The translations under genes and the position numbers were made by a program. The notes beneath the pieces were generated by a model. It saw only the letters and a list, made by a program, of their open reading frames with translations, was not told the DNA's origin and searched no databases. Of a stretch of 64,000 nt of DNA, positions 940-54,455 are shown piece by piece (within the stretch, counting starts at the first letter, position 1; each line of letters begins with the position of its first letter). This DNA comes from Candidatus Poribacteria bacterium (GTDB taxonomy: Bacteria > Poribacteria > WGA-4E > WGA-3G). Location: contig OZ246979.1 of NCBI GenBank assembly GCA_965232545.1, positions 2,703,521 through 2,767,520 of the forward strand. Direction: 5' to 3'.

Positions 940-951
940 GTTTTGCGCCCG

Positions 952-3035: not shown

Positions 3036-3497
3036 TTACTCTGAGATATAAGAAGTCTCATTTGTGGGTGTAGCACTTTCTGCCCCATCGTATTTCGAGG
3101 CACACTTCGTCATGAGTTTAGACGCGACGATGAGGTTCTGCGTTGCATCGTATTTGCCCTCTACGAAAACACTACCCCCATCCGTAAAATTATCCGGTTT
3201 CAGTCGATCTTTGTAAATCACGTTAACTGTCGCTGCAGTTTCGCGGTCGCGTACAGCAAAGGTGAGCTTAAAATTGGCAGCATCCCATTCGGAACTACCC
3301 TCTGCAATAAGCCCATCAACTTGGACCGGTTGATTGTTCATTCTGTTTCCGTCTGTCACAAGCGCAGCGGGCGTGAAGTGCCGAACACTTGTCCTTTTAA
3401 TTCCAGTTACCACTAAAAGTGCCATACCACATAACAAAATGAAACTCGCGGCAATCACTTTAAGCCTTCTCTGTTTTTGCACCTGGACATCCTCCAT
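3036..3497 (-). CDS. ccmE: Cytochrome c-type biogenesis heme chaperone CcmE, the CxxxY variant.
   Basis: N-terminal TM anchor and an OB-fold-like body. The C-terminal motif is LMTKCASKYDG, with Cys where canonical CcmE has the heme-binding His (HxxxY). Adjacent to ccmF. Confidence 0.75.
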   Translation of the reverse strand: MEDVQVQKQRRLKVIAASFILLCGMALLVVTGIKRTSVRHFTPAALVTDGNRMNNQPVQVDGLIAEGSSEWDAANFKLTFAVRDRETAATVNVIYKDRLKPDNFTDGGSVFVEGKYDATQNLIVASKLMTKCASKYDGAESATPTNETSYISE

Positions 3498-3789
3498 TAA
3501 TCAAAATCAGTAGACGTGATTTCTCAATCGTACTGACGAGATGAATTCTTACTCTTTAAAATAATACTTGATTTTACATGCAAAATCAAGTTAAAATAGA
3601 ATTTAATGTATCTGAAACTTTTAGTTTGCCCCCTCACAAGCACAATCTAACAGATTATGCTACAAAGATAGCAACCTGTGTTAAAATTAGCATAGAAAAC
3701 CAAGTCAAGCCCGTAGGGGTTGACGACTCCAGAGGAAGGAAGGTTAAATTCCAAAGCCATTCGCTTTAACCGCAAGGAAAATTAAAAAT

Positions 3790-4731: not shown

Positions 4732-4820
4732 TAGCAGTCAGCGGTCAGCAATCAGCAATCAGTGGTAGGAGGGAACTCCGATTCCCGATGGATTGGCTCG
4801 TCTACTGCGGGAGGAGTAGC

Positions 4821-6035: not shown

Positions 6036-6068
6036 TTTGAAGTTAATATCACACTCATAAAGGAAAAA

Positions 6069-7043: not shown

Positions 7044-7080
7044 GGATACCTTCCTGACCTGTCCTACAAAGGAGTTGGTT

Positions 7081-8076
7081 ATGTCGCAAACTTCGTCGAA
7101 ATATCGTGTCGCCATCGTTGGGTGCGGTGGTATCTCTAACGCACACGGCAATGCGTGGCGGAATCTACCAGAAATTGAAATTGTAGGGGCATGCGATGAG
7201 AAGCTTGAACCGCTGAAACGTTTTGCTACTGAGTATAACGTCCAGAATACCTACAACGACCTCCGACAGATGCTGGAAAAGCAGCAACCGGATGTCTTAG
7301 TGGTTGCAACGTGGCCCTCGAATCATCTGAAAAATGTCTTGGAAGCAGTGCGGTGCGGTGTCAAAGGTATCCTTGTTGAGAAACCGATTACGGTTAATAC
7401 CACACAACTGGAACAGATGATCCAAGTTACAGCGCACGCCGACATCCGATTAATGGAAGCCTTTATGTATCGACACCATCCATTGACGCTCGCCGTGAAA
7501 CAGAAAATCGAGGAAGGAGCAATCGGAGAGGTTCGCTATGCCCGTTCTACTTTTTCAACAGGACTCACAGACCGACAAAATTGGCGATTAAGAGGCGACC
7601 TCGGTGGTGGTGCCGTCATGGATTTAGGCTGTTATTGTATCAACATCATCCGTCATCTCGTCGGGCGAGAACCACAGTCCGTATGGGCAACCGGCAAGTT
7701 TGAAGCGATTAATAACGTCTGGGAAACACTGATTGGAACCTTAGACTTTGGCGATGGTCTGACCGGGCAATTGGATTGTAGTTTCGGTTGGACATGGCGT
7801 GAATCTTATGAGATCGCGGGAACGGATGGAACACTCTTTGTTCAAAGTGCCTGGGGCAACTCAGAAGGCGACTCCCACTTTACAGTAAATGGCGAAACTA
7901 TTCGTGTTGCTAATGGTGTGAACCCTTATGCCGCTGAGATTTTGGATTTATGTCGAGCGGTGGAGACCGGGACCCCAACGCACTTACCAATATCGGACGC
8001 GCTTGGAAATATGCGTGTCATTGACGCATTACACGAATCCGCACACACAGGTCAGTGCATCAAACTCCCTGTGTAA
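7081..8076 (+). CDS. Gfo/Idh/MocA family oxidoreductase. The start is refined to the internal ATG with an AAGGAG RBS; the ORF track begins at 6958.
   Basis: MSQTSSKYRVAIVGCGGISNAHG...GACDE Rossmann N-terminus. The upstream in-frame extension overlaps the previous gene. Confidence 0.8.
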   Translation: MSQTSSKYRVAIVGCGGISNAHGNAWRNLPEIEIVGACDEKLEPLKRFATEYNVQNTYNDLRQMLEKQQPDVLVVATWPSNHLKNVLEAVRCGVKGILVEKPITVNTTQLEQMIQVTAHADIRLMEAFMYRHHPLTLAVKQKIEEGAIGEVRYARSTFSTGLTDRQNWRLRGDLGGGAVMDLGCYCINIIRHLVGREPQSVWATGKFEAINNVWETLIGTLDFGDGLTGQLDCSFGWTWRESYEIAGTDGTLFVQSAWGNSEGDSHFTVNGETIRVANGVNPYAAEILDLCRAVETGTPTHLPISDALGNMRVIDALHESAHTGQCIKLPV

Positions 8077-8253
8077 AGACTTTAAATTGTCCTTACCACA
8101 ATCGCTACTTGAACGATTGCTATCTGTTAGGACATAAGGAGAGCGGCTTTTAGGACCGGAAGAAGCACGTGGTTATCTTCAGTAATCGTTCAGTTTCACC
8201 AGAAATCCGATTAGCTTGTAAGTTCAATCGGTCCAAAGACCCAATAGTTAAAA

Positions 8254-10674
8254 ATGTTTGAAAAAATGATGAAGTACCCCATTGACGTTTTCCGAGAGGG
8301 AAATTTCTCGTTTGGGGTACCATTACCAGGGCTTCTGATAGCCGTCCTACTCGTCGCGCTTTTCGTCGCTACAATATGGGCATATCGGAGTACTCAAGGA
8401 CGCATCCAACGCGTCTTTCGGGGTTTTCTCATCTGTCTTCGCGCGATTGTACTCTGCCTGCTTGCCTTCTGCCTCCTTAAACCTTTTCTAACAATTTATC
8501 AAACAAACCCTGATGATTCCTACCTGTTGGTGATGGTTGATCGGTCCAAAAGTATGCAGATTACCGATTCTGCTGATTTAACGACGCGGTTGCACCGCGC
8601 CAACGACTTACTCTTTTCGGAAGAAGAGGGACTGCTTGAAGAACTGAACGCCAAATTCAAAGTTAGACTCTTCGCGTTCGACACTACGGCAAAACGAGTT
8701 CCGAGCGAGACGTTGACTAAATCAGAAGGGGAAAGCACGGATATCCCACAGGCATTAAACGAAGCACTTGATGACTTGCAGGGAATCCCACTCTCGGGTG
8801 CTGTACTGCTAACCGATGGTGTAGACAGAAGTGGTGTTGATATTGCAAAGTTCGCAATGCAAATCCGAGAACGGAAACTGCCGATCCATACTGTTGGCAT
8901 TGGCGCGGAAGAGGGCAACCCAGATCTGGAGCTTGTCAAGGTCGATGTACCTCGGACCGCAGAAGAGGATTTTCCTGTCGAGGTATGGGCAACACTACAA
9001 CGGAAAGGATTCAAGGGAAAGAAGGTAAACATCCAACTAACAAACAACGGACGGGTGCTGAAAACCGAGTCCGTTGATATGGATGAAGGTACCTCTTGGA
9101 TGTCGCAACTCGGTGGAACAGACTCGGTTTCTGATACCAAGACGGAACGCGTCCTGCTTAAATTTACCCCTCGCGAAGCCGGCACCCAAAAATTTGAAGT
9201 ACATGCAGAGTTGGGAGAAACAGAAGCCGTTCCACAAAACAACGCGAAAACATTCTTACTCAAGGTGGCACCTACCAAACGTGTAAAAATCCTATTTGTT
9301 GATGGTAAACCCCGTTATGAACTTGGCTTTATAAAGCGTGCCTTGAAAAATGATCCGAACATCCAATTGACCGATCGGTTTTTGAAAGGCTTCACTACTG
9401 AGGGACGTCCAACATACGGCGGCACCCTCACCGAGGCATTCAATGATTCTAAACTTTATCCGGACGATAAGGAGACGCTCTTTGACTTTGATGCCATCAT
9501 TTTAGGCAACGTGGATGCATCCCAATTTACACTGTCGCAACTGGAAAATACAGTTGAGTTTGTACGCACCCGAGGCGGTGGACTGCTCATGCTGGGCGGT
9601 TCCAGTTCTTTAGGTAACCATGAACTTTCGGGGTCCTATATCAACACGCCGATTGCGCAATGTCTCCCTGTAGAATTGGAGCTTGGATCCGCGCAACCTC
9701 CATTGGCACCGAGGCGACTGGGTAGATCAACCACGAGTTCGCAGTCTATTAGAAACAAGGACTATAAATTGCAACTCACACCGGAGGGGAAAGTCGAAAC
9801 TTTGATGGCTCTGGCGGATATGCCTGTCGAGAATTTGGAACGCTGGCAGATATTACCTGCGTTGAAGGGGTATAGTAAAGTGAAACGCGCCAAAGCAGGA
9901 GCACTTGTTTTGGCAGAGCATCCAACCGATCGGAACGAATCCGGTAATCGAATTCTTATCGCAACGCATAATTACAATGCCGGACGCGTAATGGTATTTA
10001 CACCGCACAGTTCCTGGCGTTGGCAGATGCTACCTTCTCACGAAGATGGGGATCAACGATTCTGGCACCAAGAGGATACTCCTGAACGGTTCTGGCGACA
10101 GGTTGCAAAGTGGTTGACAACTGCTCCGAAGGAGCATATTACACTCAACATCGCAAAAACGGCTTACGCTTTGAAAGAACCTGTCGTAATTGAGGTCACC
10201 GCCACGGATCAACAGTTTCAGTTGACAAACAACGCGAAAATCCGAGCCGTGGTGCTTGATGAAGCGGGGAAACGCAGAGAGTTAAAACTGGAACAGATCC
10301 TCGGGAAAGATGGACGCTACACAGCACGTTTTATTCCAAATCGTTACGGCGAATACACTATCACCGCAACTGGAACCCTTGATGGCAAAAATTTGGGGGA
10401 ACAACAGACTCTTTTCGAGGCAAAAACATCTTACGCCGAGTTTAGTAATGCTGAGCTGAACGTCGCACTTCTCAAAACGCTTGCTGAAGGGAGTGGAGGC
10501 AAGTACTACACCCTGGAAGAAGCCTCTCAACTTGTAAATCAGATTCCGCTTGTCGAAAGTGCAACCTCAAAGATTACGGATGTCGATATCTGGGATATGC
10601 CTCTCATCTTCGGCGCGGTTATCGCGCTACTTGGGTTCGAGTGGTTCTTAAGAAAACGCGGGGGCTTGGTATAG
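8254..10674 (+). CDS. BatA-like transmembrane protein: an N-terminal double-TM segment, a VWA domain, and a class-I glutamine-amidotransferase-like/ThuA-like domain.
   Basis: Two N-terminal TM helices. MIDAS-like motif VMVDRSKSM (DxSxS). A later ILGNVDASQF...GGGLLMLGG segment is typical of the BatA/BatB/DUF4159 architecture. A MoxR ATPase lies nearby. Confidence 0.55.
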   Translation: MFEKMMKYPIDVFREGNFSFGVPLPGLLIAVLLVALFVATIWAYRSTQGRIQRVFRGFLICLRAIVLCLLAFCLLKPFLTIYQTNPDDSYLLVMVDRSKSMQITDSADLTTRLHRANDLLFSEEEGLLEELNAKFKVRLFAFDTTAKRVPSETLTKSEGESTDIPQALNEALDDLQGIPLSGAVLLTDGVDRSGVDIAKFAMQIRERKLPIHTVGIGAEEGNPDLELVKVDVPRTAEEDFPVEVWATLQRKGFKGKKVNIQLTNNGRVLKTESVDMDEGTSWMSQLGGTDSVSDTKTERVLLKFTPREAGTQKFEVHAELGETEAVPQNNAKTFLLKVAPTKRVKILFVDGKPRYELGFIKRALKNDPNIQLTDRFLKGFTTEGRPTYGGTLTEAFNDSKLYPDDKETLFDFDAIILGNVDASQFTLSQLENTVEFVRTRGGGLLMLGGSSSLGNHELSGSYINTPIAQCLPVELELGSAQPPLAPRRLGRSTTSSQSIRNKDYKLQLTPEGKVETLMALADMPVENLERWQILPALKGYSKVKRAKAGALVLAEHPTDRNESGNRILIATHNYNAGRVMVFTPHSSWRWQMLPSHEDGDQRFWHQEDTPERFWRQVAKWLTTAPKEHITLNIAKTAYALKEPVVIEVTATDQQFQLTNNAKIRAVVLDEAGKRRELKLEQILGKDGRYTARFIPNRYGEYTITATGTLDGKNLGEQQTLFEAKTSYAEFSNAELNVALLKTLAEGSGGKYYTLEEASQLVNQIPLVESATSKITDVDIWDMPLIFGAVIALLGFEWFLRKRGGLV

Positions 10675-10788
10675 CAGAAAAATCCGTCATCAACTCACAA
10701 TTTCCGAAAATAAAACATTCAACTTGTCAGGTATAGATTGGCACCGGGAGCTGTTATGGCTCCCTGCTTTTTTGTCAGGATTTCCACT

Positions 10789-10823
10789 TGACAAACCGCA
10801 TCTTAAATATTACAATGCTTCTT
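10789..10823 (+). promoter_or_regulatory. Near-consensus sigma70-type promoter (TTGACA-17 bp-TACAAT) upstream of the Uma2-family gene.
   Basis: cttgacaaaccgcatcttaaatattacaatgc, read directly from the sequence. Confidence 0.4.
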
Positions 10824-10864
10824 ATCAGAAATGCGCTATAAACATCAAAAGAAGGATTAAAGAC

Positions 10865-11431
10865 ATGACACAACAAGAACTCCACGAACTCGCGCAAGGG
10901 AGTCTCGCACCGGAACAGATCTCCATGACATTGGCGGAATTTCTTGAGAACGATATAGATGGATACGAATACGTTAAAGGAGAGTTAGTGCCGATGTCTC
11001 CGCCCACGAGAATACATAGCAAGATTAGCGTCAACGTCATCCGGCATTTGGATCGGCATGTGGATGAGCATCAGTTAGGGGAGGTCCATGTAGAGGCAAC
11101 GTTTCAGGTCGATGAACGTGGACTGAAACCAGATGTGGCGTTTGTTTCAACGCCGCGGTTGGATGGAGATGAAAACATCGGATTTCCAATCCCTCCCGAT
11201 CTGGCGATTGAGGTTGTTTCGCCGTCAGACGTTCAGTGGCGTGTTGTAGACAAAGCGTTCGCTTATCTGGATGCGGGCACACGCCTCGTTTGGGTTCTGG
11301 ATCCCCGCTCTAAAACGGTGACGGTTTATCGTTCTGAAAGCGACATCGCGCTACTCACACTCGAAGCCACTCTCACAGGTGAGGATGTCGTGCCGGGATT
11401 TGCCTGTCCTGTCTCCCAACTTTTCGAGTAG
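10865..11431 (+). CDS. Uma2-family (DUF820) putative restriction-endonuclease-fold protein. The start is refined to the internal ATG.
   Basis: Typical Uma2 N-terminus (MTQQELHELAQ...LAEFLEN...YEYVKGELVPMSPP) and a PD-(D/E)xK-like core (PDVAFV...EVVSPSD). Confidence 0.65.
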   Translation: MTQQELHELAQGSLAPEQISMTLAEFLENDIDGYEYVKGELVPMSPPTRIHSKISVNVIRHLDRHVDEHQLGEVHVEATFQVDERGLKPDVAFVSTPRLDGDENIGFPIPPDLAIEVVSPSDVQWRVVDKAFAYLDAGTRLVWVLDPRSKTVTVYRSESDIALLTLEATLTGEDVVPGFACPVSQLFE

Positions 11432-11526
11432 TTACGTTGAACGAATTTATTATAGTGTAGGCACCCCTGCACCCTACGGAACCTGGCGAGACAGGGGTCC
11501 TCGTCCCACAGGATATACGGAGAATT

Positions 11527-12885
11527 ATGAACAATTCCTATAAAAATGTCATGTTTGTCATCGCCGACGATTGGAGCCGCATCGCGAAATGCTACGGAAA
11601 TGAGGTTATCCGAACCCCGCACATCGATGCATTTGCTGAACGCGGGGTCGTGTTTGACCATGCATTCTGCACAAGTCCTTCGTGTGCCGTGAGTCGCGCC
11701 TGTATTCTCACGGGACAACACAGCCATACGCACGGACAATACGGACACTGCCACGGCATTCACGGATTCCGCACGCACGAATATATGCAATCGGTGCCGA
11801 AAATTCTAAAAGCACACGGATTTGCTACCGCATGCATTGGGAAGAAACACGTTGAACCCGAAAGTGTCTATCCCTTCGATTTTGAACCGAAAGTCGATTC
11901 CCGAAGCCCTGCGGACATAGCAGCGAAAGCCACACAATTTCTCAACGAGAATGCAGATACGCGCTTTTACCTCCATATCGGCAGTAGTTATCCACACCGT
12001 GCTGGCAAAGGATTTGGGAATGACCGGACACATGCTGGCATTCAACCGAGCCCTTATGCCCCAGACGAAATCATTGTACCGAATTTCCTGCCAGACATAC
12101 CCGCTGTCCGCGAAGACCTCGCTGATTACTACGAAAGCGTTTCGCGTTGGGATGCTGTGGTAGGTGCGGTTTTGGAGGCACTTGACGCTTCGGGGCGCGC
12201 AGATGAAACCCTCGTTTTTGTTACGACCGATCACGCGATGCCATTTCCGGGCGCGAAGGCATCCAGTTTTGATAGTGGACATCACTGTCCACTGCTTATT
12301 GCCAGTCCGACGCAACAGAAACGCGGTTTCCACAATCAGGCACTCGTTAATTGGGTAGATTTCTGTCCAACAATGTTGGATTGGTGTGGCGTTGCACACC
12401 CCGATGGAACAGAGGCACTTCCGGGTAGATCGTTGCTCACTGTCTTGGAGGACGATAACCCACATCCGGGCAACGGTGCCTGGGAGGAAACGTATTTTTC
12501 TCACTGTTTCCATGAGGTGACGAACTACTATCCATATCGCGTGCTACGCGGTAGACGGTATAAATACGTCCGTAATCTGGCATACCAACTGGAGACCCCT
12601 CTCCCAAGCGACCTGTTCCGTTCAATCTCATGGACAGCGGTGCGGAACGACAACGTTCAGCAACTCGGTGAGCGACAACGGACCGACTTTCTACAGCAAG
12701 GTCGTGAGGCTTTGTATGATATGCAGAACGACCCAGCGGAGTCGCAAAATCTCATTGATGTGCCAGAATTACAAAACACAGCCAACGAAATGCGTCAAAA
12801 GGTCATCGAATTCCGTCAGAAAACCGAGGATCCATGGCTTGAGCAGTCCTTTCAGGAAGGTGAAACGCAACCTTTTTTCACTTAA
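11527..12885 (+). CDS. Sulfatase (arylsulfatase / N-sulfoglucosamine sulfohydrolase family).
   Basis: N-terminus VMFVIADDW. The active-site region CTSPSCAVSRACILTGQ is CxPxR-like, with Val in the Pro position. Family-typical length of 452 aa. A cognate FGE maturase is encoded at 28527. Confidence 0.85.
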   Translation: MNNSYKNVMFVIADDWSRIAKCYGNEVIRTPHIDAFAERGVVFDHAFCTSPSCAVSRACILTGQHSHTHGQYGHCHGIHGFRTHEYMQSVPKILKAHGFATACIGKKHVEPESVYPFDFEPKVDSRSPADIAAKATQFLNENADTRFYLHIGSSYPHRAGKGFGNDRTHAGIQPSPYAPDEIIVPNFLPDIPAVREDLADYYESVSRWDAVVGAVLEALDASGRADETLVFVTTDHAMPFPGAKASSFDSGHHCPLLIASPTQQKRGFHNQALVNWVDFCPTMLDWCGVAHPDGTEALPGRSLLTVLEDDNPHPGNGAWEETYFSHCFHEVTNYYPYRVLRGRRYKYVRNLAYQLETPLPSDLFRSISWTAVRNDNVQQLGERQRTDFLQQGREALYDMQNDPAESQNLIDVPELQNTANEMRQKVIEFRQKTEDPWLEQSFQEGETQPFFT

Positions 12886-43846: not shown

Positions 43847-44530
43847 TCATCTATTTTCTGTAGGGTCATTTAGGCCTTCTGTTGGAGGGAATTCCGATAG
43901 GGACGTTTCAATCCATCGCGCCCCAAGTTGAAAAAGTGAATCGTTTGCTGGTGTTTCAAAGGTAAAAACGGGTTTGCCCCACGCCAACACTATCTGCGCA
44001 AATTCCAAAATCTTACTATCCTCTGCAGCGTGGGCAATACAGATTTTGTCCGCAAGTGCCGCAACAAAGAGGTTGCGTTGGTGCGCCAATGCCGCTGTCG
44101 ATCGCTGATGGCGACTCCCAAAAATAGATAGGATTAATAGACGCTTTTCAGATAACGCATCCTTCCACGCCGATTTCAGTCTCATCTTTTCGATGCTCCG
44201 TGCCGGACTTATGAGAATCGGCTGTGAGCCACGCAGTAAAACGCGTAGGCACTCCTGCTCAACTGGAGAGTGATACCCGCCTATCGTTGGGATACCTGCT
44301 TCTCTAAATTCTTGTGCCAAGTCATGCGCTTTCAGGATAATCTCTCCCGGGCATTTACTGGAGCAGAAAAGTGCCCAGAGGTCTCCGTTCAAGGTGGCGT
44401 TTTGCCCAGGTAACAGGTCAACACTCCCGCGTGCCCAGATCGTTTCGGGTGTCTCCGTTTTTAAATACTGCCTCAATCCTGTTGGATAATTCGTGTCTTT
44501 TTGTGTGATGTGTTGGATTGCCTGCGTCAC
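43847..44530 (-). CDS. Rossmann-fold nucleotide-binding protein of the DprA/Smf/SLOG-like family.
   Basis: Pattern IGGYHSPVEQECLRVLLRG...ILISPA resembles the DprA/SLOG core. This is a weak assignment. Confidence 0.3.
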   Translation of the reverse strand: MTQAIQHITQKDTNYPTGLRQYLKTETPETIWARGSVDLLPGQNATLNGDLWALFCSSKCPGEIILKAHDLAQEFREAGIPTIGGYHSPVEQECLRVLLRGSQPILISPARSIEKMRLKSAWKDALSEKRLLILSIFGSRHQRSTAALAHQRNLFVAALADKICIAHAAEDSKILEFAQIVLAWGKPVFTFETPANDSLFQLGARWIETSLSEFPPTEGLNDPTENR

Positions 44531-44591
44531 TTACTGTTAGTATCCTTCATGTAGGTCCTACTGCTTACGTTCGCGTAGTTAATCACGCAAT

Positions 44592-44650
44592 TAATCGCTT
44601 ACCTAATCGCTTACCTAATCGTTTACCTAATCGTTTACCTTTTGTACGTA
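44592..44650. repeat. Tandem 12-bp repeat (TAATCGYTTACC) of 4-5 copies.
   Basis: aattaatcgcttacctaatcgcttacctaatcgtttacctaatcgtttacc, read directly. A related motif recurs at about 47852-47897. Confidence 0.7.
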
Positions 44651-44886
44651 CTTAGTCCCTCGTCCCTTGCCTACTACATGTAATAATCCTTTATTTGTTA
44701 GATCTTTTAGTTCCTCATAGGCGATTCGGACTGAGACATGATTAATCTCTATGTATTCCTTTCTTCGGTGGTGGCGTTTTCGCCTTGTGCAATGCGTTGT
44801 TTGATAACAGCGGTTTCCATAGTTTTTTAGGGTCCGACAATGCGGTCTTGCCTATACGCTTCCATTTCCTTTTGCAGTGTTTCGAT

Positions 44887-45255
44887 CTATTGTTGCTGTG
44901 CCTCAATTTTTTCGTCCTGTGCGCGGACATCTCTTCGTTGTAGTGCGACAAGGATCTGAGGTATCCCGATGACCACGGCAATGAAAGCTACCAAAGCGAT
45001 AACCAACATAAAAATCTGGTTCAGACGTTTGTCCATTTCTGCGATTGTGATGTTGACGGTTTTAATTTCGTTAGAGATATGATCCTTCATCCGTGTCTCG
45101 GATGCGTCAACGTATTTTTTTATCCGGGTCTCGGATGCTTCAATTTCTGCCTTGACAATTAATCGGATCTTATCAATGTCTGCTTGAGTGAGTTCACCGA
45201 ACGCTGACGTGGTAAACAGCAGAAGTGCTACGATCAAAGTCATGATTAATTTCAT
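44887..45255 (-). CDS. Small secreted or membrane-anchored coiled-coil protein (hypothetical).
   Basis: N-terminal signal peptide, an internal sequence repeat (ASETRIKKYVDASETRMKDHI) and a C-terminal TM helix. Confidence 0.35.
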   Translation of the reverse strand: MKLIMTLIVALLLFTTSAFGELTQADIDKIRLIVKAEIEASETRIKKYVDASETRMKDHISNEIKTVNITIAEMDKRLNQIFMLVIALVAFIAVVIGIPQILVALQRRDVRAQDEKIEAQQQ

Positions 45256-45270: not shown

Positions 45271-45474
45271 CTATTCTTCCCCAGGATTTTCAACGGGCAT
45301 CGGTTTACTGCGTCCCTTGTATATTAACTTAACCCGTATTGTGCCAGATTGACGCGGTGGGGGCGTAACTATGACCGCGTCCACGTTAAGGATGTCCTCT
45401 TCATCATAGACGGGAAAAGCGAGGCGTTGCTTCTGTTTTTTGTTCGTTGTGTTTTTTTGTTGTATAGTTTTCAT
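45271..45474 (-). CDS. Small hypothetical protein of 67 aa.
   Basis: ORF only. It is co-directional with and just upstream of the preceding small gene. Confidence 0.2.
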   Translation of the reverse strand: MKTIQQKNTTNKKQKQRLAFPVYDEEDILNVDAVIVTPPPRQSGTIRVKLIYKGRSKPMPVENPGEE

Positions 45475-46187
45475 AGACTGTTTAAAACTCCTTCACCTAC
45501 AATTTTAACAGAAGTTGGGAATACGTGCAACCGTATTACACAGCAGTCCCGTAAAGGAAATAGTGCGCGTTTCAGAGTATTCAGAGTAAATGGAAAAATA
45601 ATAGGTTTCAGGAAAAGTCCGTGAACCCATACTGGGACTGGATTCTCAGTGGTTTTTTCAGGAGGTTTCTCAGAAGTTTACTCTGAAATTTCAGAGGTGG
45701 GAGGAAGGCTTCGGTTTATACTGTCTGAATCAGGATTTTCAAGATTATAGGATTTTCAGGATAGGAAGAGAACAACGTTCTTCAGTCTACTGAAGGAAGA
45801 TGTTTTCTGTGATAGGTTTTCAGTCCGATTCACGGAGACTTTTCTGAGAGCAGATGGTCCGTGGGTTCGTGGAACGCAATATGTCCTCTCTCCGTGAAAA
45901 CACGAAATGAAAAATTATATTTAACGAAATGTTTCGCGTAGACCCTCCAGATGAATTAGCAATCAACGGAGGGTAGGCGCGGGATTGTTCGACGTTTTGA
46001 CGGAGGGCGGAGCCAATCCCAGAGCATAATTGTCTGAATCAAAATTTTCAGGATTTTAGGATAAACAAGATAATGCGAAGCGCGCTAAATCTCCTGTCGT
46101 CAAACTTTTGGTGAGTGGGAAGCATGATTTCTCAACCAGTTTAGTCCGTTTCTGTATCATTCTGAAAACGACTACGGATAAACTCTG

Positions 46188-47684
46188 TTACCTGTGGGCC
46201 CAATAATCTTGCTTACCTCCTGGGGTCTTGACAAAGAGTTCCCCGCTGTTAGTGTAAAAGATCTCTTTTTCCTGTTGCGGTGAAATTACAAGTTCAACTA
46301 CCCATAAATCTTCTGCAGTGCTTCCTTGTAAATCGTAAACATTATGAAATTCAATATCCCAATCTTCATCACTAATCGGAGGACGTATACCCCAAAGCTT
46401 TTCTGATACTTTACGGCGGACCTTATCTCTTTGTTGTTCATCAAGAGTTACACCTACCGTGATTCTATCATCCCTTATTCCCCAGAAAATACGTCCGCCT
46501 TCACTATTGAGAAAGGCGACAGCGTATTCATCAGCGGTATTTGTAATTGAACCAACTGGATTTCTGCCCTTGACTTCCTTAAATTCATAGAGGCGTGTTT
46601 CCTCAAAAGGAACAGATTGCCCCTGAATAAAATCAACTTGGGTTGGTTCGGTTAATTTTGCCCTATCAGTTGCATGAATTAGGTGTTCCTCAGCTAACCG
46701 TTTATTTTCACGTAACTCGGAAAGTTTACCTTCTGAATCCAACTTGATACCTACCTCAAAATATTCAATTGCTTTTTGATATTGCTTAAGCCGGAGAAAA
46801 GTTACACCCTTGCCGTTTAATATAATCGCTTTCTGAACTGGATCTTGCACCGCGCCAAGTGCTTTATCAAAATTCTCAAGGGCAGCTTGGAATTCGTCAA
46901 GATGAAGAAACGCCATACCATCATAACAGATATTCATTGGATCAATATACGAAACCAATTGTCCGGCACGTAGATCCTCTGCTGCCCTGGATAAGGAAAA
47001 ATTCCCTCCTGTCATTGCATCAATATATCTGCCATGCAAAGTTGCCAAGCTCACTTGAGTCCTTTGTACCGCCACCCGAATTTGGAGTTTAGCATAAAGA
47101 ATACCGTAAGCGGAAACGCTCATATCAGCAATAAGTCCTTCTGATAATCGGGAACCGAAATCTGAACGAAGTATGTGAGTAAACCAATCAAGAGTTGCAT
47201 CCGTAGGATTTAACTGATTCCAATGTGCCCACGATTCACGAAACTTGTCCGTGTCATTGTGCAAAGCGAACAGCAGAGCTGAAGGGGACACGTGTAATAT
47301 TCTACGAATCCCCTCTTTCTCCTCATCAGCTTGATATATTGAATTAAGATAAAAACGGCTAAGAATATAATCAACTAACTCAAAGTCAATTCTGGCAAAG
47401 TAATACTGAGAAGTAATAAACTGCTCTGCCTGCTCCTTATATTCCTCTTTATCCGATAAAAATTCTTGGGCTAATTGTGCAAAAGTCTCGATGTCTTTTT
47501 TGACAACATAGTGGTCAATCTTATCATTGCTTATTTTTTCGCAAATATTTTCTGAGACAAGTGCTGCAAGTTGCTCCTCTATAGCTACCAACGACTCACC
47601 AATCTCATTAGTAATTTCGTTGGCAGGGTTGAGAGTACAATCTAATAAGTGCAAGATAATTTTTTTACGGATTAAAGTATCCAT
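46188..47684 (-). CDS. TPR-repeat protein with a C-terminal AlbA_2 / Schlafen-like putative DNA-binding domain.
   Basis: TPR-like segment (KALGAVQDPVQKAIILNGKGVTFLRLKQYQKAIEYFEVGIKLD). The C-terminus (RLYEFKEVKG...AVAFLNSEGGRIFWGIRDDRITVGV) matches the AlbA_2 (PF04326) pattern seen in Schlafen-like defense proteins. Confidence 0.6.
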   Translation of the reverse strand: MDTLIRKKIILHLLDCTLNPANEITNEIGESLVAIEEQLAALVSENICEKISNDKIDHYVVKKDIETFAQLAQEFLSDKEEYKEQAEQFITSQYYFARIDFELVDYILSRFYLNSIYQADEEKEGIRRILHVSPSALLFALHNDTDKFRESWAHWNQLNPTDATLDWFTHILRSDFGSRLSEGLIADMSVSAYGILYAKLQIRVAVQRTQVSLATLHGRYIDAMTGGNFSLSRAAEDLRAGQLVSYIDPMNICYDGMAFLHLDEFQAALENFDKALGAVQDPVQKAIILNGKGVTFLRLKQYQKAIEYFEVGIKLDSEGKLSELRENKRLAEEHLIHATDRAKLTEPTQVDFIQGQSVPFEETRLYEFKEVKGRNPVGSITNTADEYAVAFLNSEGGRIFWGIRDDRITVGVTLDEQQRDKVRRKVSEKLWGIRPPISDEDWDIEFHNVYDLQGSTAEDLWVVELVISPQQEKEIFYTNSGELFVKTPGGKQDYWAHR

Positions 47685-47889
47685 TGCCTTCTCTATGTTT
47701 TACGATTTGCGAGATGCGTTCAATTTTCCTTGTCAATTTCCCGAATTACGATATTTAATGTCGTAGTTGGTGATGAAGTCAAATTTGTAACTATGCAGTC
47801 CGTAATAGATGGGAAAATATGACCGATTGTGAACACATTAAATATAAAATCATTTACCTAATCACCAACTCGATTAGTTATCTAATCGG

Positions 47890-48453
47890 TTACTTTCCTA
47901 ACTTAACCATACGAACCGTTAATCCCGAATTTGGTCCGGGTGGTAAACCGAGAGCAGGCTCAACGCCTTTAGATTTTCTCAAATCTTCTAGTAGTGCCTC
48001 AACCGATAACTTTCTCCCTAACAAAGCTTCGGATTCGGGGCGAGGTTGACTCACGGATTTTCCACGATACACCTCAACTTGATTTACGCCCTCCTCTATC
48101 GCACGAATACATAAACCTCTTACATAATATCGATTAAACTCCCCTTCACTAAGAGTGTCGGGAGCGTTTACAGGAACCTTAGCATTCGTGAAACCACCAC
48201 CCCGCTTTCTACGTTGCTCGTAATCTTTCATATAACCTTGACTGCGTAATTGTTGGGCAAGCCAAGTGTCATTATAGTGCTTTATAGCCTCTTTAAGAAG
48301 AGAAACATAATTCCGCTCTCCGAGTCCATTAAGGCGTGGGCTCATATAGAGATTCCCATTAGATAAGTCTGAATCAACTTCACTTAACATGAATGAACGC
48401 GTGCTTTCATCCAAATTTTCGTAATGTAGTGCCACAGCTATTTCTCCTCGCAT
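47890..48453 (-). CDS. Hypothetical 187-aa protein. It is a cassette gene flanked by duplicated copies of the methyltransferase 3' end.
   Basis: Clean ORF with balanced composition and no recognisable motif. It lies between direct repeats at about 47745-47790 and about 48715-48760. Confidence 0.45.
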   Translation of the reverse strand: MRGEIAVALHYENLDESTRSFMLSEVDSDLSNGNLYMSPRLNGLGERNYVSLLKEAIKHYNDTWLAQQLRSQGYMKDYEQRRKRGGGFTNAKVPVNAPDTLSEGEFNRYYVRGLCIRAIEEGVNQVEVYRGKSVSQPRPESEALLGRKLSVEALLEDLRKSKGVEPALGLPPGPNSGLTVRMVKLGK

Positions 48454-48699
48454 GCATTTTAGAATTTATGTTCCACGCTTGAATATAGATAATCCAAGGA
48501 AACGTATAAAAATCTGTGTTCCTATTTTCCGATTTTGCTCGATTGTGTTGACATTACAGTATTCTCAGGAAGTTCGACTAAATAGTGCCAGGCAGAGTGA
48601 AAACCTTCCGAACCGTGTTTCAACGTCAACAAATATTAAGTATACCACATCGCGGAAGAAAAGTCAAATGCATTGCATTTTTGCGTTCGGTTCACTGCC

Positions 48700-51600
48700 T
48701 CACTTCCCCAAGCCCATCCGATATTTGATGTCGTAGTTGATGATGAAGTCTAATTCCTCATCTGTGAAGCCGTAGTGTTTCGCAAGCACATGGTCGATTT
48801 CATCTATGATGTGTTTAGATTTTTGAATCTTGAATAACTGCGTTTCAGTGCGTCCAGTCCGCTTTTGAACGCGAACTTGCATTATGCTATTACATTGTAG
48901 ATCCTCCAAATACACTTTTCCGAGTTCAGCGAGTTGAGAATCATAAAGAGCAGACTTAGGGATTGGAAAATTCTTAATATCAGATGCAGAAAGATTTCGG
49001 CAGTCCGTCGTAATCGTGTACCACCACCAGAATAAATCACTACTCAAAACCGCAATGACAGGTCTCAATATTTCAGAAGTTTCAACACTAAACGCCCGCT
49101 CAGCCGTAGAGTTCCCTGATTTACCATTAACCCTAAACGCCGGTTGGAAATCTGTGAACACTTTCCAATATAATCCACCTGCTACGCGGTGATAAACTCG
49201 ATGTTTACTTTGCGCCATGAATAACCTTAAAACAGTTTTGACTGCGGTACATTTCTCAAGTAAATCGGTTTCAATTTCCATTCCCAACTTTGGTGCCCAA
49301 GTTGCTGTTCTATGGCGTGGTATTTCCACATAACCAATATTATACATTAGGGAATCTCGATTATCGGAAGACCATTTCTGACAGTTTGTAGAAAAAGTCC
49401 TATCTTGCCTTGAAGGAGTTGCAATGAAAATAGTTAGTAGAAGGTTTACCATATCAAACAGTTTAGCAGGACGCCATGAATAGTTGGCATACCAAACATT
49501 ACGACTTTCTTCTAAAATGGTTTGTATGGTCTGCATTCGTTGTGTGGAAACTAATGCTAAAGGAACAATCATGCTCATGCAACCATGTTGACTTAAAAGT
49601 TGGGCACTGCGATCTATGCACATTGCATGGATTGCTTTGGTTTCGTAGCTGGATAGGCTATTTGGAGGTAAATAATCGACCTGTCTTAATTCAAGGTACG
49701 GCGGATTGCCAATAATCACATCAAAGCCACCGTCCTTCAGGATCCCGTAAAACGCAATGAACCAGTGGAACGGCTTATGTGAAGAAAGCCATGCTTGATA
49801 AGCAGCATTGGTATCCGCCGAGTTGAGATTTATTCTGCTTATCGTTTGTAAAGTGGGGGGGGGGCACACTATATTCGCCAGCAAGGTATTCGTTGAGTTC
49901 GTTTTCTAACGCCCTGAGTTTATCCTGTAACGCTTGTTTGTCTGCTAGGTGCACATCACCACCTAATTCCGTCTGCTGCTCCCGAAACAGGAAAGACAGC
50001 CACTCAACATCTTCAACCTTTTCTTCAATGCGCTTCATGCTATCGTCGAAGTCAAATTTACCGGTGACTGCTTCCTTCACCTCATCGTAGGAAGTATAAC
50101 CGACGAGGGTATTCCCTGCCTGAATGTTAAAGTCGATGTCTGGTAGCGGCTCAATCCGTCTCACGTCCTCAAGTTGCGCTACCATTTTAAGGAAGAGGCG
50201 CAGTTTGCAAATCTCAATTGCCTCGTCCATGATGTCTACGCCGTAGAGGTTGTTGATAATGATGGATTTGAGGATGAAGTAACGGTGATTCGGGTGCTGC
50301 TTGATGTCCTCAAGGATATTGCGGAAGTCGTTATATTTACGAGAAGGGTGTGATTCAGAAATCATTTCTATCTCGTCCAAGAAGACTTGCATCCGATCAA
50401 GACATACCTCATAGAGCGGTTCGAGGATATTCAGTGCGGCAAATAGGAACGCCCCGGAACCACAGGTGGGGTCGAGGATTGTCACCTGTGTGATGGCTTT
50501 CCAGAAGGCGCGGAGCAGTTCGGGCCCCTCACAATTCTCGATGACATCCTGCGCGAATTGGCGGATATTGAGATTGTAGGTAATCAGATCGTTGATGTCA
50601 CGGACCTCTCCGTTTTTGAGTTTCGCTCGGACAGTTTCATAACGTTGTCGCCGTGCGACGACCTCTCGCCAAATCTCTGTTGGCAAGGCATATTCATCGG
50701 ACGCGAGTGTGTTCCAACAATCGGTACGTTTGGAGACATCGCCAATTCCCACAGCAATTTCCTCTGGCAGATCGAATTCAACACCTTTTTTGACAGCATC
50801 GTAGATATAGCGGTCAGGATCTTCTTGTAGGAGGTGCCAGACGGATGCGTCGCCTTCAAAGGCGATTTTGCACGCTTTTCGCGCCTTGTCAAAAAGGCAT
50901 GGAATGATGGCATTTTTGCTGATGTAGTCCGTGATGTCCTCTTTAGTGTAGTAGGCACCCATCTGCTTCTGGTTGATGTATTTCTCAAAAATACAACCGA
51001 GGACATCTGGGTTGATCTCGTTGTCGTTCCGCAGCGGACGATCGTCGAGGTGCCACTGGTATTGATCAAAGAACTTGAAAAGCTGATCGAATGCCTTGTC
51101 AGGAATCTCAATGTTTTCGCCGTGGAGGGTCTCAATTTGGTGTTTCTGAAAGATGCCGCCGTTGAGGTAAGGGATTTTACCCAGTAGGCGTTTCACCTCT
51201 CTGCTTCGTTCGGCTTCCGGTTTCGCAAATCCTTCAAAGAAGAGGGGACAGAGGAGCTTTTTGTAATATTGATCGGTCTCCTGTTCTTGACCGTGTGCCA
51301 ATTTGGTGCATAGATAGTTGGGGTCGTTATCAAGAAAGCCTTTCTTCTGAATGAAGTAGATGAACATCAGACGGTTGAGCATGACGGAGGCGTACCAGCG
51401 TTGCATCTCTTCATCAGGAATACCTTTGAGAAATTTAAGGAATGCGTCATGCTCTTTCTTGAAACGGTCATAGAAACGTTTGGTGACTTTTTCAACGTCA
51501 AAACTTGCTCGAACCCGACTCGTCACGTCAAACAGTGTAAGTTGCCCTTCTTCCTCAAAACTAAAGGCAATGGCTTCAAGTTTTTGGATCAGCAAGTTCC

Positions 51601-51976
51601 CGGGTTGTGTTGTATGATACCGATGTTCACGACATGCTGTGGGTTTGCCGTGCTCTCGTCTTACCCACTGCCAGATTTGTGTATTTTTTTCCACATCGGT
51701 GTAAATGATAAAGTTCTCGTGGAAAGATTTTGCAACTTCCTTTTGAATCTTGCGGCGAGTGGCATAATCCGGCATGTGGTCATTAGATGTAGTTTGTGAA
51801 CACTCAAAGACGACCATTCCGCGTTTTTCGGCGATGGCGGTGAGTTGGTATTCGATTCCGTCTACCGTGATATTGAGTGGTTGGATCCGGTGAAAATCCC
51901 AACCGAGTTCTTCAATAAAGAGGCTTTCAAATTCGGATTCTTTGAGATATTGACGTGTTTCTCGGACGTTAAGCAT
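48700..51976 (-). CDS. Large N6-adenine DNA methyltransferase (gamma-like motif order; PglX / Type IIG-like). It is interrupted by a +1 frameshift at a G10 (C10 on the coding strand) homopolymer and is a phase-variable gene in the OFF state.
   Basis: The upstream frame (49775-52144 in the ORF track) carries AdoMet motif I ILDPTCGSGAFLFAAL and the N-terminal module ...WYASVMLNRLMFIYFIQKKGFLDN... The downstream frame (48700-49884) carries motif IV VIIGNPPYL. The two frames meet at 10 consecutive C; 9 or 12 would give a single protein of about 1092 aa (...EYSVPPPTLQTISR...). The start is refined to the ATG at 51976, with an AAGGAAG RBS. Confidence 0.75.
49855..49864. repeat. Homopolymeric G10 tract (C10 on the coding strand), a simple-sequence contingency locus inside the methyltransferase gene.
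   Basis: aaagtGGGGGGGGGGcacact, read directly. Coordinates are within about 1 bp. Confidence 0.85.
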
Positions 51977-52034
51977 TAGTATCTTCCTTTTGTCATGTTC
52001 AGTGGAAAGCGTCCCAGCAATTTCTGAGAGTGTT

Positions 52035-52721
52035 TTAGTCGTAGTCCTCGTCCTCATCGAGTGCCTCCGGGTCCAGGTCCATTCCGAGGTAAAGCCCCAT
52101 GGGAGCGAGTCCTGCTTTGACTTTTTGGAGCGATCCCATCCCAAAATTACTGATCAGTAGTAGTTCTTCTTCCGTTTTTTCGACGAGTGTGCGTAAGGTA
52201 TAGATGTTTGCCCTTTCGAGACAATTGTGGGCTCGGGTAGGGAGTCTGAGTGCGGCGATAGATAGGGTTAAGTAATCATCCCGCTCCTGTTCCGTCACAT
52301 CAGCGATCTCCGGCTCCCTGTAGATGTTAGGGAACAGCGGGTCCCGTTCATGTTGGGCCTCGATAATATCTATCCAGGGCGAATCCAATTCCTGTTCTGC
52401 CTCAGTAATATCTGCCAAGACATCCCGTTCCGGATTGAGCAAAGTTCTTTGGAGCGAAGGAGGGAGGGATTCCCAAATCCTCGCGTAATGCTCCGATTCT
52501 GACGCAGCTTCGCACCAACGGTCGAGAAAGGTCCGAAGCGTCTCGCTATCTTCCTTCCCCTCTGAAATCTGTGTTATGACTTGGAATAATTCCTTAAAAA
52601 ACACAATGAGGTCTTCTACCGGTAACCATTTGACCCAATCGTAGGGCTTTGGAATTGGAACAGATTTGACGAGCAATTCGTCGTCTATAAGGTATCCGAC
52701 AACAAGTTTAGCATCTTTCAT
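52035..52721 (-). CDS. Hypothetical protein with a C-terminal domain resembling the RNA polymerase alpha-subunit C-terminal domain (alpha-CTD, HhH). Paralog 1.
   Basis: The C-terminus LSIAALRLPTRAHNCLERANIYTLRTLVEKTEEELLLISNFGMGSLQKVKAGLAPMGLYLGMD matches the RpoA alpha-CTD pattern (LSVRS.NCLK...I.T...L....E.EL....N.G.KSL.EI...L...GL.LGM). The start is refined to MKDAKLVVGY. Confidence 0.55.
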   Translation of the reverse strand: MKDAKLVVGYLIDDELLVKSVPIPKPYDWVKWLPVEDLIVFFKELFQVITQISEGKEDSETLRTFLDRWCEAASESEHYARIWESLPPSLQRTLLNPERDVLADITEAEQELDSPWIDIIEAQHERDPLFPNIYREPEIADVTEQERDDYLTLSIAALRLPTRAHNCLERANIYTLRTLVEKTEEELLLISNFGMGSLQKVKAGLAPMGLYLGMDLDPEALDEDEDYD

Positions 52722-52830
52722 CTGGAGTCTCCTTGTAGCAAGAATGTTGAATTTACGCCAATTATACATGACGTACTGATAGCATTCAAGATTTTTTGGA
52801 GGTCGGAGTTGCCAATCCTTCCTGCAAGTG

Positions 52831-53660
52831 TTAGAGTGGCATCCTCGGTATCTCTGTCTTCAAACCGAGAATCGAGCATCTCAGCATTCTGCGATCCCAT
52901 GGGTAGCGGTTCATCGTTCTCAATGGCGTGTCGGTCAATCCAGCGCGTGCTTCCTGCGACAAGTGATACGCCATTTTGATATAAATGTGATAGGGCGGAA
53001 TAAGTTCCTCACGCGCCCAACTCTGCTCGATAATCTCAACCAATTCCTTAGAAATATCGATGCACCATCTGTCATTCCACCGGTCTTCAAACCAGTCCTC
53101 CAATTTTTCGCAAGCATCCGAGTCAACAACATCAATATTGAGTTCTCCCTGATGCGACAGCCCAGAAAGCGTCAAATTGCTACTGCCGAGGTAACCCACA
53201 GTCGGTGCGACGAGGTCGGAGCGATAGATGAGATAGAGTTTCGCATGGAGGGTGTGTCGGAGAAAAAGTTTTACCTTTACCTTCTCGTCCCGAAGCTGCT
53301 GCGCCAATTGACGTAACCCTCTTTCGTCTGCACGCGTTGGTACACCGACGGTTAACTGTTCTCGGAACTCCTCTGCTAACCTCCGTTTCAAACGGAGTGC
53401 TGTTTGATTGTCGATCCCACCGTCCTGCTTAGCGAGTCGTTTGGCCTCGCAGAGTTCTTCTTCGGCCAAGCGTTGCATCCCGACAAGTAAACGGCAGCAT
53501 TCGCCTTCACCCCATCCCAATTCTCAATATAAGATCCGAGTCCTCTCCATCCCCGGAGGTTAAAATAACCGACACAAAAGTCGGCGTATGTGGCAGTTTC
53601 AAGTGTCTGTTGGAGTGCGGGAAGTAGGGGTTGGTAGATATTATCAAAAATACGGGGCAT
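52831..53660 (-). pseudogene. PLD-family (HKD-motif) nuclease gene split by a frameshift (N-terminal fragment 53388-53660, C-terminal part 52831-53520).
   Basis: The N-terminal fragment is MPRIFDNIYQPLLPALQQTLETATYADFCVGYFNLRGW... The C-terminal frame carries [11 protein letters not shown]...GSSNLT (an HxK...GSxN PLD signature). The two frames overlap around 53470-53540 with no long homopolymer. Its ATG abuts the stop of the upstream alpha-CTD-like gene (TAAATG). Confidence 0.6.
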
Positions 53661-54455
53661 TTAGAATGATGCCTCCTCGTCGTCCTCGTCGAACAGATCC
53701 ATTCCCAGGTAAAGCCCCAAGCCAGCGAGTTTGGATTTGATTTCGTGGAGCGTCGCTTGTCCGAGCCCCTGGTATTCCAGGAGGTCCCATTCCATTTTTG
53801 CGACGAGTTCTCGGACGGTTTTGATATTTTCATTTTTAAGACAGTTGTGGGCACGAGCAGAGAGTTGAAGCTTGGAAATGTCGTATGCTAAATGTTTCTC
53901 CTGCTCTGCTTCCGTCACGTCACGTACCACCGGTTCAGCATCACCAGCGTGCATGGGTGAACGGTAATCCGGTTCCACGCCAACGATATCTACCCAGGGC
54001 GAATCCAATTCCTGTTCTGCCTCCAAAATATCTGCCAGGACATCCCGTTCGGAACTGATCATGGCTTTTCCGATGAAACCGGCGAGAGAATTCAAAAGTG
54101 TCGCGGGATCTTGCCCTTTTAAGGCAGCTTCTAAAGCATCTACGCTCCAATCGGTGACGACGGTCGGAGGGGTCTTGCTATCTTCTTCAAATATCTCAGA
54201 ATCTTCCTCGCCTAAGGCTATTTCGCGCCAACTTAAGGCAATTTCATGCCAAAAGTCGAGAAAAGTCTGAAGCGTTTTGCTATCTTCCTTTTCCTCTGAA
54301 ATTTGGATCATCAATTCCAGTAATTCCCCAAAAAACTGAGCAAGTTCCTCGTTCGCTAACCACTTGATCCAATCGTGAGATTCTGGAATCGTAAAAGATT
54401 TGACGAACATTTCGTCATCCATAAGGTATCCAACGACGAGTTTGGGCATTTTCAT
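53661..54455 (-). CDS. Hypothetical protein with a C-terminal RNA polymerase alpha-CTD-like domain. Paralog 2.
   Basis: Shares the N-terminal block KLVVGYLxDDExxVKS...ERDVLADIxEAEQELDSPWxDI and the C-terminal LSARAHNCLKNENIKTVRELVAKMEWDLLEYQGLGQATLHEIKSKLAGLGLYLGMD with paralog 1. Confidence 0.55.
   Translation of the reverse strand: MKMPKLVVGYLMDDEMFVKSFTIPESHDWIKWLANEELAQFFGELLELMIQISEEKEDSKTLQTFLDFWHEIALSWREIALGEEDSEIFEEDSKTPPTVVTDWSVDALEAALKGQDPATLLNSLAGFIGKAMISSERDVLADILEAEQELDSPWVDIVGVEPDYRSPMHAGDAEPVVRDVTEAEQEKHLAYDISKLQLSARAHNCLKNENIKTVRELVAKMEWDLLEYQGLGQATLHEIKSKLAGLGLYLGMDLFDEDDEEASF

Follow-up and report, generated by a model that had tools for sequence, protein, structure and literature searches.

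The methyltransferase locus and its repeat

We analysed a 64,000-nucleotide stretch of contig OZ246979.1 (assembly GCA_965232545.1) from a Candidatus Poribacteria bacterium, referred to here as the window, and within it an island headed by the gene of a type IIG-like N6-adenine methyltransferase (MTase). Read along the coding strand, the live 3' end of the MTase gene (R0) is followed by a gene for a 187-aa protein, by a short copy of the same MTase end (R1) and by a TPR-AlbA_2 gene. Displaced copies of this kind are called stubs below, and the genes behind the MTase are called cargo. The island was compared with 12 Candidatus Poribacteria loci, 11 of them distinct (L002, L082, L083/L084, L085-L089 and L170-L172; L084 is a second assembly of L083), which were obtained by exact-protein look-ups and one genome scan. 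The frame common to these loci consists of an RpoA-C-terminal-domain-like gene, a gene for an HKD(PLD)-SNF2 helicase (~1138 aa), the MTase, a variable cargo region and a short DprA-like gene. The cargo repertoire includes the 187-aa and TPR-AlbA_2 genes, a Sel1-trypsin gene, a 544-aa gene, a TIR-plus-Macro pair, an AlbA_2-HATPase gene, an AAA_15 gene with a 178-aa partner, a 67-aa gene and others. In the window the flanks are of a housekeeping nature (purF, purM, TonB, ThuA and NADH dehydrogenase).

An earlier note made from this sequence had proposed that the MTase 3' end is duplicated on either side of the 187-aa gene, and the duplication is real. A repeat finder reported a 37-nt direct repeat at 47749-47785 and 48719-48755, with an identity of 34/37 and a spacing of 970 nt, and its second copy does lie between the 187-aa gene and the TPR-AlbA_2 gene, where it had been placed (Table 1). 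The 32-nt core, CGATATTTGATGTCGTAGTTGATGATGAAGTC, has two mismatches in that copy rather than the three first counted. It matches the 64-kb window at only two places, a number that was reached in 0/100 dinucleotide-preserving shuffles. The duplicated unit is longer than the roughly 40 bp assumed at first, as gapped local alignment extends the homology to ~115 nt (48682-48799 versus 47715-47828), across the stop codon and 18 nt of 3' flank, with a score of 39 against 13.9 +/- 1.8 (maximum 20) for shuffled sequence. With a hidden Markov model (HMM) of the repeat the two window copies scored E-values of 2e-21 and 8e-16.

Table 1. Coordinates of the main features in the window.
Feature	Position	Strand	Remarks
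R0, live MTase 3' block (last ~100 nt and 18 nt of 3' flank)	48682..48799	-	stop codon 48700-48702; 37-nt core 48719-48755
R1, displaced non-coding relic before TPR-AlbA_2	47715..47828	-	includes stop codon and 3' flank; 37-nt core 47749-47785
187-aa open reading frame, cargo between R0 and R1	47890..48453	-	open reading frame list
Promoter-like site, TTGACT-17 nt-TATACT, TG-extended	48639..48667	-	consensus match at 10/12 positions; 33 nt past the MTase stop, reads into the cargo
TPR-AlbA_2 (Schlafen-type) gene	46188..47684	-	open reading frame list and domains
Type IIG-like N6-adenine MTase gene	48700..52144	-	domains DUF7814, MmeI_Mtase, Eco57I (Pfam)
R2, probable third, strongly decayed relic (weak)	44515..44556	-	start of the DprA-like gene; visible in the window only by alignment or orthology

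On the minus strand the upstream copy reads as the end of the MTase open reading frame (ORF), DFIINYDIKYRMGLGK followed by the stop codon, and the downstream copy reads as YYGLHSYKFDFITNYDIKYRNSGN followed by a stop codon, with stops shortly upstream, where its frame is broken. The motif HYGFTDEELDFIINYDIKYRMG is a C-terminus that is conserved across the whole MTase family: of the 120 homologues of the C-terminal MTase ORF that matched best, from several phyla, about 115 end in it and a short tail. The second copy is therefore derived from the MTase. It represents a decaying remnant of the terminal ~100 nt of the gene together with the stop codon and ~20 nt of the 3' flank. Two other kinds of repeat were considered and rejected. 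A dispersed intergenic repeat, of the repetitive extragenic palindromic (REP) or miniature inverted-repeat transposable element (MITE) type, does not agree with two copies in 64 kb or with a conserved MTase coding end across phyla, and the stubs found in other phyla (see below) match their own local MTase. A transposon target-site duplication was set aside because the unit is ~115 nt long, is diverged, and comes without terminal inverted repeats or a transposase. An inverted pair near the stub (47765-47782 and 47853-47870) was taken as chance, and L086 is without it.

Stubs and cargo in related loci

The related loci were searched for stubs with an HMM built from five copies. The model finds the live end in every MTase-bearing locus, and in 10 of the 12 loci it finds one to four further stubs in the cargo region, all of them on the MTase strand and all of them between genes, with E-values that reach 1e-16 to 1e-22. 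The stubs, of 30-140 nt, share 80-97% identity with live ends and carry indels, internal deletions (in the L083-type stub and in L089) and frame breaks. Their 5' limits, counted from the MTase stop, differ in Poribacteria (-30/-35, -64, about -99 and about -119), and all fall within a conserved block of ~120-140 nt. The shortest limit, -30/-35, is that of L086 and, by strict local match, of L083; by alignment the L083-type stub reaches about -55 to -64, with an internal deletion of ~17 nt. An extension of stubs to -183 or -255 nt, suggested by tblastn, proved spurious, as direct translation gives 38-47 residues at most.

That the similarity could be a matter of chance or of assembly was also considered. 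The short length of the core speaks for this and nothing else does, and we regard it as refuted: the shuffles and the HMM E-values are against it, the copies are mutually diverged, and assemblies made independently from different samples and on different platforms, L083 and L084 among them, show the same architecture.

The stub that precedes TPR-AlbA_2 is not peculiar to the window. It stands directly before this gene in seven loci (the window, L002, L083/L084, L170, L171 and L172), and the block of relic plus TPR-AlbA_2 is kept as a unit, with window 47779-46124 corresponding to L002 7997-9656 and window 47755-46140 to L083 13253-14875. What lies between the live end and this stub is variable. 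The window has the 187-aa gene there. In L083 and L170-L172 the order is R0, Sel1-trypsin, stub, TPR-AlbA_2, with a further stub in L170-L172, and the difference between the window and L083 is confined to 48626-47755, that is, from 71 nt past the MTase stop, just beyond the promoter-like site, to a point inside the stub. L086 has R0, the 187-aa gene and a stub in the same order as the window and different genes thereafter; its positions 284-1397 are continuously alignable with window 48810-47705 at 79% identity. The orthologues of R1 are the L086 relic behind the 187-aa homologue and the relics before TPR-AlbA_2 in L002, L083 and L170-L172.

L002, which has lost the MTase, reads stub, TPR-AlbA_2, stub, promoter region, 187-aa homologue, 544-aa gene, 67-aa gene, stub. 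Compared with the window, both the block of stub plus TPR-AlbA_2 and the block of stub, upstream region and 187-aa gene are kept, and their order is reversed. The 187-aa gene stands in first, second or third place depending on the locus. In the window and L086 it follows a live end, in L002 and L087 a stub; in L087-L089, where it is second or third, only 65-80 nt of upstream sequence are common with the window. The 544-aa gene is likewise found behind a live end (L082, L087) and behind a stub (L170, L172). TPR-AlbA_2 was found behind stubs only, and never directly behind a live MTase end in the loci examined; the relic in front of it would mean that this cassette is one that formerly lay directly behind the MTase stop.

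These comparisons bear on two proposals of the earlier note. The first, that the 187-aa gene arrived, or is exchangeable, together with its own copy of the MTase 3' end, gains support from the exchange of the 187-aa gene (window, L086) for Sel1-trypsin (L083, L170-L172) and from the permuted order in L002. The alternative that was offered with it, that the MTase once ended next to TPR-AlbA_2, is likewise compatible with the data. The comparison of orthologous loci that had been suggested turned out in favour of the interpretation, the cargo gene between the live end and the pre-TPR stub being indeed polymorphic. A site with a single repeat copy did not appear in any of the 12 loci.

Sel1-trypsin and TPR-AlbA_2 are adjacent in four loci (L083 11341-14874; L170-L172 ~7997-11548) with only the stub between them, and this stub has the same 17-nt internal deletion in all four. 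The two genes may form a two-gene unit. The 187-aa gene occupies the place of Sel1-trypsin in the window.

The DprA-proximal junction and the promoter-like site

A probable third relic, R2, lies at the start of the DprA-like gene. It is strongly decayed in the window. A relic is scored at the orthologous position of both L172 (E 6e-5) and L083 (E 0.006). The GTG start codon of DprA overlaps the stop codon of this relic (AAGTGAC), and the first codons of the DprA-like gene show homology to the 3' flank that every copy has at +1 to about +22 (consensus CGCAGCCAATTGAACGCA). In the simplest history the MTase was originally followed directly by DprA, and this junction later received all of the cargo. 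Shortly before the DprA-proximal stub there is a 12-nt tandem array of GGTAAGCGATTA (4.1 copies, 44592-44640). Two degenerate copies of the GGTAAGCGATTA 11-mer lie behind the stop codon of the 187-aa gene (47854-47864 and 47878-47888), and all five window matches of the 11-mer fall in the island and on the gene strand, against a chance expectation of 0.9. The GGTAAGCGATTA motif also precedes DprA in L085 and L002.

The promoter-like site behind the MTase stop (Table 1) is predicted to be active from its match to the consensus. The post-stop region that contains it is kept in loci with a different first cargo gene, and the homology to L083 and L170-L172, where Sel1-trypsin comes first, stops at window 48622-48626. 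Behind R1 there is no promoter-like site comparable to that at 48639-48667. One may ask whether the stubs were retained as regulatory elements, that is, as promoter, operator, terminator or translational coupling signal for the gene downstream. Stubs always stand immediately 5' of a gene, their core is better conserved than their flanks, a near-consensus promoter-like site lies behind the live copy, and the start of DprA overlaps a stub stop codon, all of which would fit. The promoter-like site, however, lies past the duplicated unit and not in R1, and the stubs bear indels, internal deletions and frame breaks. Moreover, regulation would account for why stubs are retained and not for how they originated, and is in that respect compatible with the displacement that we favour; as an explanation of the repeat we hold it to be very improbable.

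Recurrence outside Poribacteria

A metagenome scan for homologues of the MTase returned 80 loci with 33-61% identity, of which 71 had a recognisable live end and 56 of these had at least 1 kb of sequence downstream. In 6 of the 56 a same-strand copy of the locus's own MTase 3' end was found 0.2-2.4 kb downstream, around other cargo. In L156 a YhcG/DUF1016 nuclease gene lies between two copies of 93 nt with 97% identity, a degree of identity that suggests a recent event. A 48-nt pair surrounds a RhuM fragment in L155 and a 35-nt pair a membrane-protein gene in L102, and in L093 and L150 the pairs lie around genes without known function. The 5' limits of the stubs in these unrelated loci range from -47 to -92. 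The copies resemble the local MTase and not the Poribacteria sequence, and the process therefore recurs independently. L128 (1-11964), which had the appearance of two inverted MTase genes, was rejected as a perfect fold-back contig whose arms (1-5982 and 5983-11964) are 100% complementary, an assembly or amplification artefact.

The recurrence also bears on the possibility that whole MTase systems were acquired in tandem, every one of them with a downstream gene of its own, and that later deletions left only the last 30-140 nt of the older MTases. Large internal deletions are common in the island, as seen in the fragmentary HKD-SNF2 and AlbA_2-HATPase genes of the window, and a variable stub length is what random deletion end-points would be expected to give. 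Random end-points in a 3.3-kb gene would not, however, yield ~25 stubs of which none reaches the specificity domain or beyond. No half-MTase intermediates were found in the cargo region of the 12 loci, and the near-identical pairs of 35-93 nt around a single small gene in unrelated loci are also difficult to reconcile with erosion. We therefore regard tandem erosion as unlikely.

Proposed mechanism

The downstream repeat is a displaced stub of the MTase 3' end that was probably left by homology-anchored sequential displacement. According to this model new cargo would be inserted repeatedly just behind the MTase stop codon, each insertion bringing, or leaving in place, a complete MTase 3' end ahead of the incoming gene. 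The previous junction copy, made up of the last 30-140 nt of the MTase, the stop codon and ~20-40 nt of flank, would be pushed downstream and would then decay. In the window the latest event would have separated TPR-AlbA_2 from the MTase by a cassette of ~870-970 nt that comprises the 187-aa gene and a promoter-like region.

The last ~120 nt of the MTase gene are nearly identical, synonymous sites included, in eight alleles with unrelated specificity domains, and it is because of this near-identity that the block may be seen as a portable homology arm at which incoming DNA would pair. In a first event the far end of the incoming DNA would be joined illegitimately (homology-facilitated illegitimate recombination). 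In later events, when a cassette is already flanked by two copies, homologous recombination between a donor stub and the live end of the recipient would suffice, a route that would include Campbell-type insertion of an excised circle. Both the recombination pathway and the continued service of stubs as homology arms are what we infer from the junctions. In keeping with a pathway that needs no dedicated enzyme, there are no integrase or recombinase genes among the window ORFs from 35.9 to 62.2 kb, which cover the island and its flanks, and the 187-aa protein is the sole product encoded between the repeats, where a recombinase gene is likewise absent. The gene tables of the related loci list no integrase and no conserved recombinase, and sporadic insertion sequence (IS) transposases only.

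A dedicated enzyme might nevertheless act from elsewhere in the genome, with the MTase 3' core serving as an attachment site for cassette capture in the manner of attI/attC or of the staphylococcal cassette chromosome (SCC). Live copies and stubs hardly differ in the 32-nt core GACTTCATCATCAACTACGACATCAAATATCG, synonymous and non-coding positions included, the boundaries of several stubs are close to the NYDIK codons or to -64, and the cassettes are stacked in one orientation behind a fixed gene with an outward promoter-like site. Against such capture, the 5' limits of the stubs are spread from about -30 to about -140 and define no single crossover point, and an integrase or recombinase gene is neither present in the window island or its flanks nor conserved in the 12 loci. 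The stub-containing region between the 187-aa gene and TPR-AlbA_2 (47690-47900) forms no significant hairpin or other secondary structure (z-score -1.0), Rfam has no match to it or to any part of the window, and the stubs of other phyla differ widely in nucleotide sequence, each agreeing with its own local MTase end. Site-specific capture thus seems to us distinctly unlikely.

Several observations weigh against sequential displacement as set out above. The longest perfect run between the two window copies is 12 nt, which is too short for efficient RecA-dependent exchange at present. The 32-nt core is better kept in stubs than the flanks are, which may reflect an allelic origin or else a constraint on the core. 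Stub decay shows no monotonic trend with distance from the MTase, although the DprA-proximal stub is always the weakest; a simple model in which the newest cassette is nearest is therefore incomplete, and either blocks move together with their stubs or gene conversion refreshes the stubs. An empty site, with the MTase end followed by TPR-AlbA_2 and a single copy of the repeat, is absent from the 12 loci, and a search for such a junction by way of three TPR-AlbA_2 homologues found Sel1-trypsin intervening in 3/3, so that insertion is read from the stub and is not seen as presence versus absence. Finally, all data are metagenome assemblies.

A further proposal, that the MTase 3' block and the promoter-like site together form a recombinase-free platform for cassette capture, in which stub-flanked genes are portable by homologous recombination and the stubs are working arms rather than scars, is put forward tentatively and as doubtful.

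Comparison with known systems

Islands that target tRNA or transfer-messenger RNA genes, SCCmec at rlmH/orfX, and e14 or phage 21 at icd integrate into a gene 3' end and carry a replacement end, so that the gene stays intact, direct repeats from the target 3' end flank the element, and the displaced end is found at the far side; tandem arrays then give several copies. These islands encode or depend on a site-specific recombinase and use one fixed crossover core. The 970-nt unit described here differs in that it encodes only the 187-aa protein and in that the stub boundaries vary. The minimal mobile elements of Neisseria place different cassettes at the same site between conserved genes, depending on the strain, without mobility genes and by an exchange that is attributed to homologous recombination in the flanks. 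They replace one another and leave no scars, unlike the present locus, where each event left a duplicated stub and thereby a recorded insertion history. Integron arrays also resemble the locus in having cassettes in one orientation behind a fixed platform, a repeat at each boundary, an outward promoter-like site, and an order that differs by genome. Here, however, there is no intI integrase and there are no folded boundaries of the attC type, the repeat length is variable, and the repeat is itself coding sequence of the platform.

The closest parallel concerns toxin loci. A sequential displacement model was proposed for the effector-immunity arrays of the Vibrio cholerae type VI secretion system (T6SS) and for the orphan tips of Rhs and the orphan cdiA-CT/cdiI modules of contact-dependent inhibition (CDI) systems (PMC5361080, which cites PMC2935791 and PMC3150448 for Rhs and CDI). 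As in the locus studied here, those arrays have a live head gene with co-oriented partial 3' copies downstream, each of which marks a formerly adjacent module; their modules are shuffled between strains without a dedicated mobility gene, and the recombination proposed for them, homology-facilitated illegitimate or plain homologous, is anchored in a conserved part of the head gene. In our case the head gene is a restriction-type DNA methyltransferase and not a toxin, and the modules are unrelated stand-alone genes of the defence type instead of cognate immunity genes. Because the anchor lies past the variable domain, at the extreme 3' end of the gene, this domain is missing from the stubs, and the stop codon and 3' flank are part of what is duplicated. 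The footprint is of a known general kind of recombination in a new setting, that of a restriction-type MTase head from which unrelated defence genes are displaced.

Accessory defence genes within restriction-modification loci have been described, such as PrrC in EcoprrI and BrxU in a BREX island, as has the immigration control region, a defence hot spot framed by conserved genes (PMC12707154). The genes found here in or behind a restriction-type locus (RhuM, YhcG/DUF1016, TIR-Macro, Schlafen/AlbA_2) are likewise small, stand-alone and of the defence type. The reports on PrrC and BrxU are of association and not of a junction footprint from which the arrival of the genes could be read.

The methyltransferase and the cargo genes

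A frameshift beside a C10 tract at 49855-49864 divides the window MTase between two ORFs (49775-52144 and 48700-49884). Both motif I (DPTCGSGAF) and motif IV (NPPY) are present in these ORFs, and the intact 1090-aa homologue of L088 matches the PADLOC profile REase_MTase_IIG PDLC03628 over positions 1-1086 of 1100 (E = 0). The N-terminal region of the MTase matches DUF7814 only, and a separate HKD(PLD)-SNF2 gene is always found upstream; cleavage may therefore reside in the HKD(PLD)-SNF2 protein rather than in the MTase polypeptide. The alleles of L082 and L085-L089 share with the window a central block and the last ~120 nt, and the sequence from about -980 to -120 nt from the stop is unrelated. 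This unrelated part is presumably the target-recognition domain, and the arrangement suggests that specificity is swapped by recombination between the two conserved blocks. The frame break falls in a linker of ~45 nt that holds the C10 homopolymer. L083 and L084, described as two independent assemblies, have C11 at the same position and L085 has a G10 tract in the same linker, with the frame broken in these as well, and the alleles without a homopolymer tract (L082, L087-L089) are intact. A phase-variable on/off switch is one possible explanation of the tract, and a homopolymer sequencing error is another.

The HKD(PLD)-SNF2 gene of the window (region 52831-54455, minus strand) is fragmentary compared with L083, of which 5218-6279 and 6373-7872 are absent. 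A second RpoA-C-terminal-domain-like gene (52035-52769) stands in its place, next to the first (53661-54455). From these losses the restriction-type system appears degraded in the genome of the window.

The true start of the 187-aa ORF is probably the GTG at 48435, which would give 181 aa, the length of the 99% identical protein P0001. The family has more than 1000 members of ~177 aa in bacteria and archaea, with invariant motifs that include EGEFNRFY-RGLC and LGLPPGPNSG. The protein has no match in Pfam, NCBIfam or PADLOC, and its only match is phrog_30545, a PHROG without known function. Its AlphaFold model is confident (pLDDT 91.7) and has no Foldseek match in the PDB. Exact-sequence look-ups with the window protein and with P0001 returned 0 contigs. 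When the window MTase was compared by tblastn with 80 genome loci that carry 187-aa homologues, no co-occurrence was found outside Poribacteria, from which it follows that the 187-aa family is not a fixed partner of the MTase. The family neighbourhoods have no conserved partner gene, and the upstream neighbours are mixed and partly defence-related (hsdS, ribonucleotide reductase, PIN, OLD/AAA_15, TIR).

Downstream of TPR-AlbA_2 the window contains a 42-nt direct repeat (45722-45763 and 46031-46072, 81% identical, 309 nt apart) with a 9-nt tandem unit, TCAGGATTT. The window is without a stub at this place, and L002 and L170-L172 have one there. The 67-aa gene (window 45271-45474, minus strand; L002 12210-13186; L082 3029-3232 and 5164-5367) belongs to the cargo of almost every locus, with a duplication in some of them, and its stop codon is directly followed by a stub in L002 and L171. 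The AlbA_2-HATPase (Schlafen-ATPase) gene of the window (44592-44829, minus strand) consists of its two ends only, with ~1.2 kb deleted: 44829-44764 corresponds to the start and 44762-44592 to the end of the gene in L002 and L083. A 122-aa ORF (44887-45255) lies just upstream of this remnant.

Implications

How defence islands are assembled without mobile-element genes is an open question, and the junction stubs described here record the insertion site and part of the history of one such island. In unrelated phyla the same footprint surrounds RhuM, YhcG/DUF1016 and other genes that are typical hitch-hikers of restriction loci. If the stubs do act as homology arms, they would offer a simple and testable route of spread between strains that share only the restriction gene, and the principle of sequential displacement known from toxin-immunity loci would be extended to restriction-modification loci. 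Should the more tentative platform proposal hold, a stub-flanked gene could enter or leave any genome with an MTase of this family, and the defence islands of sponge symbionts and of other phyla would grow outward from a restriction gene.

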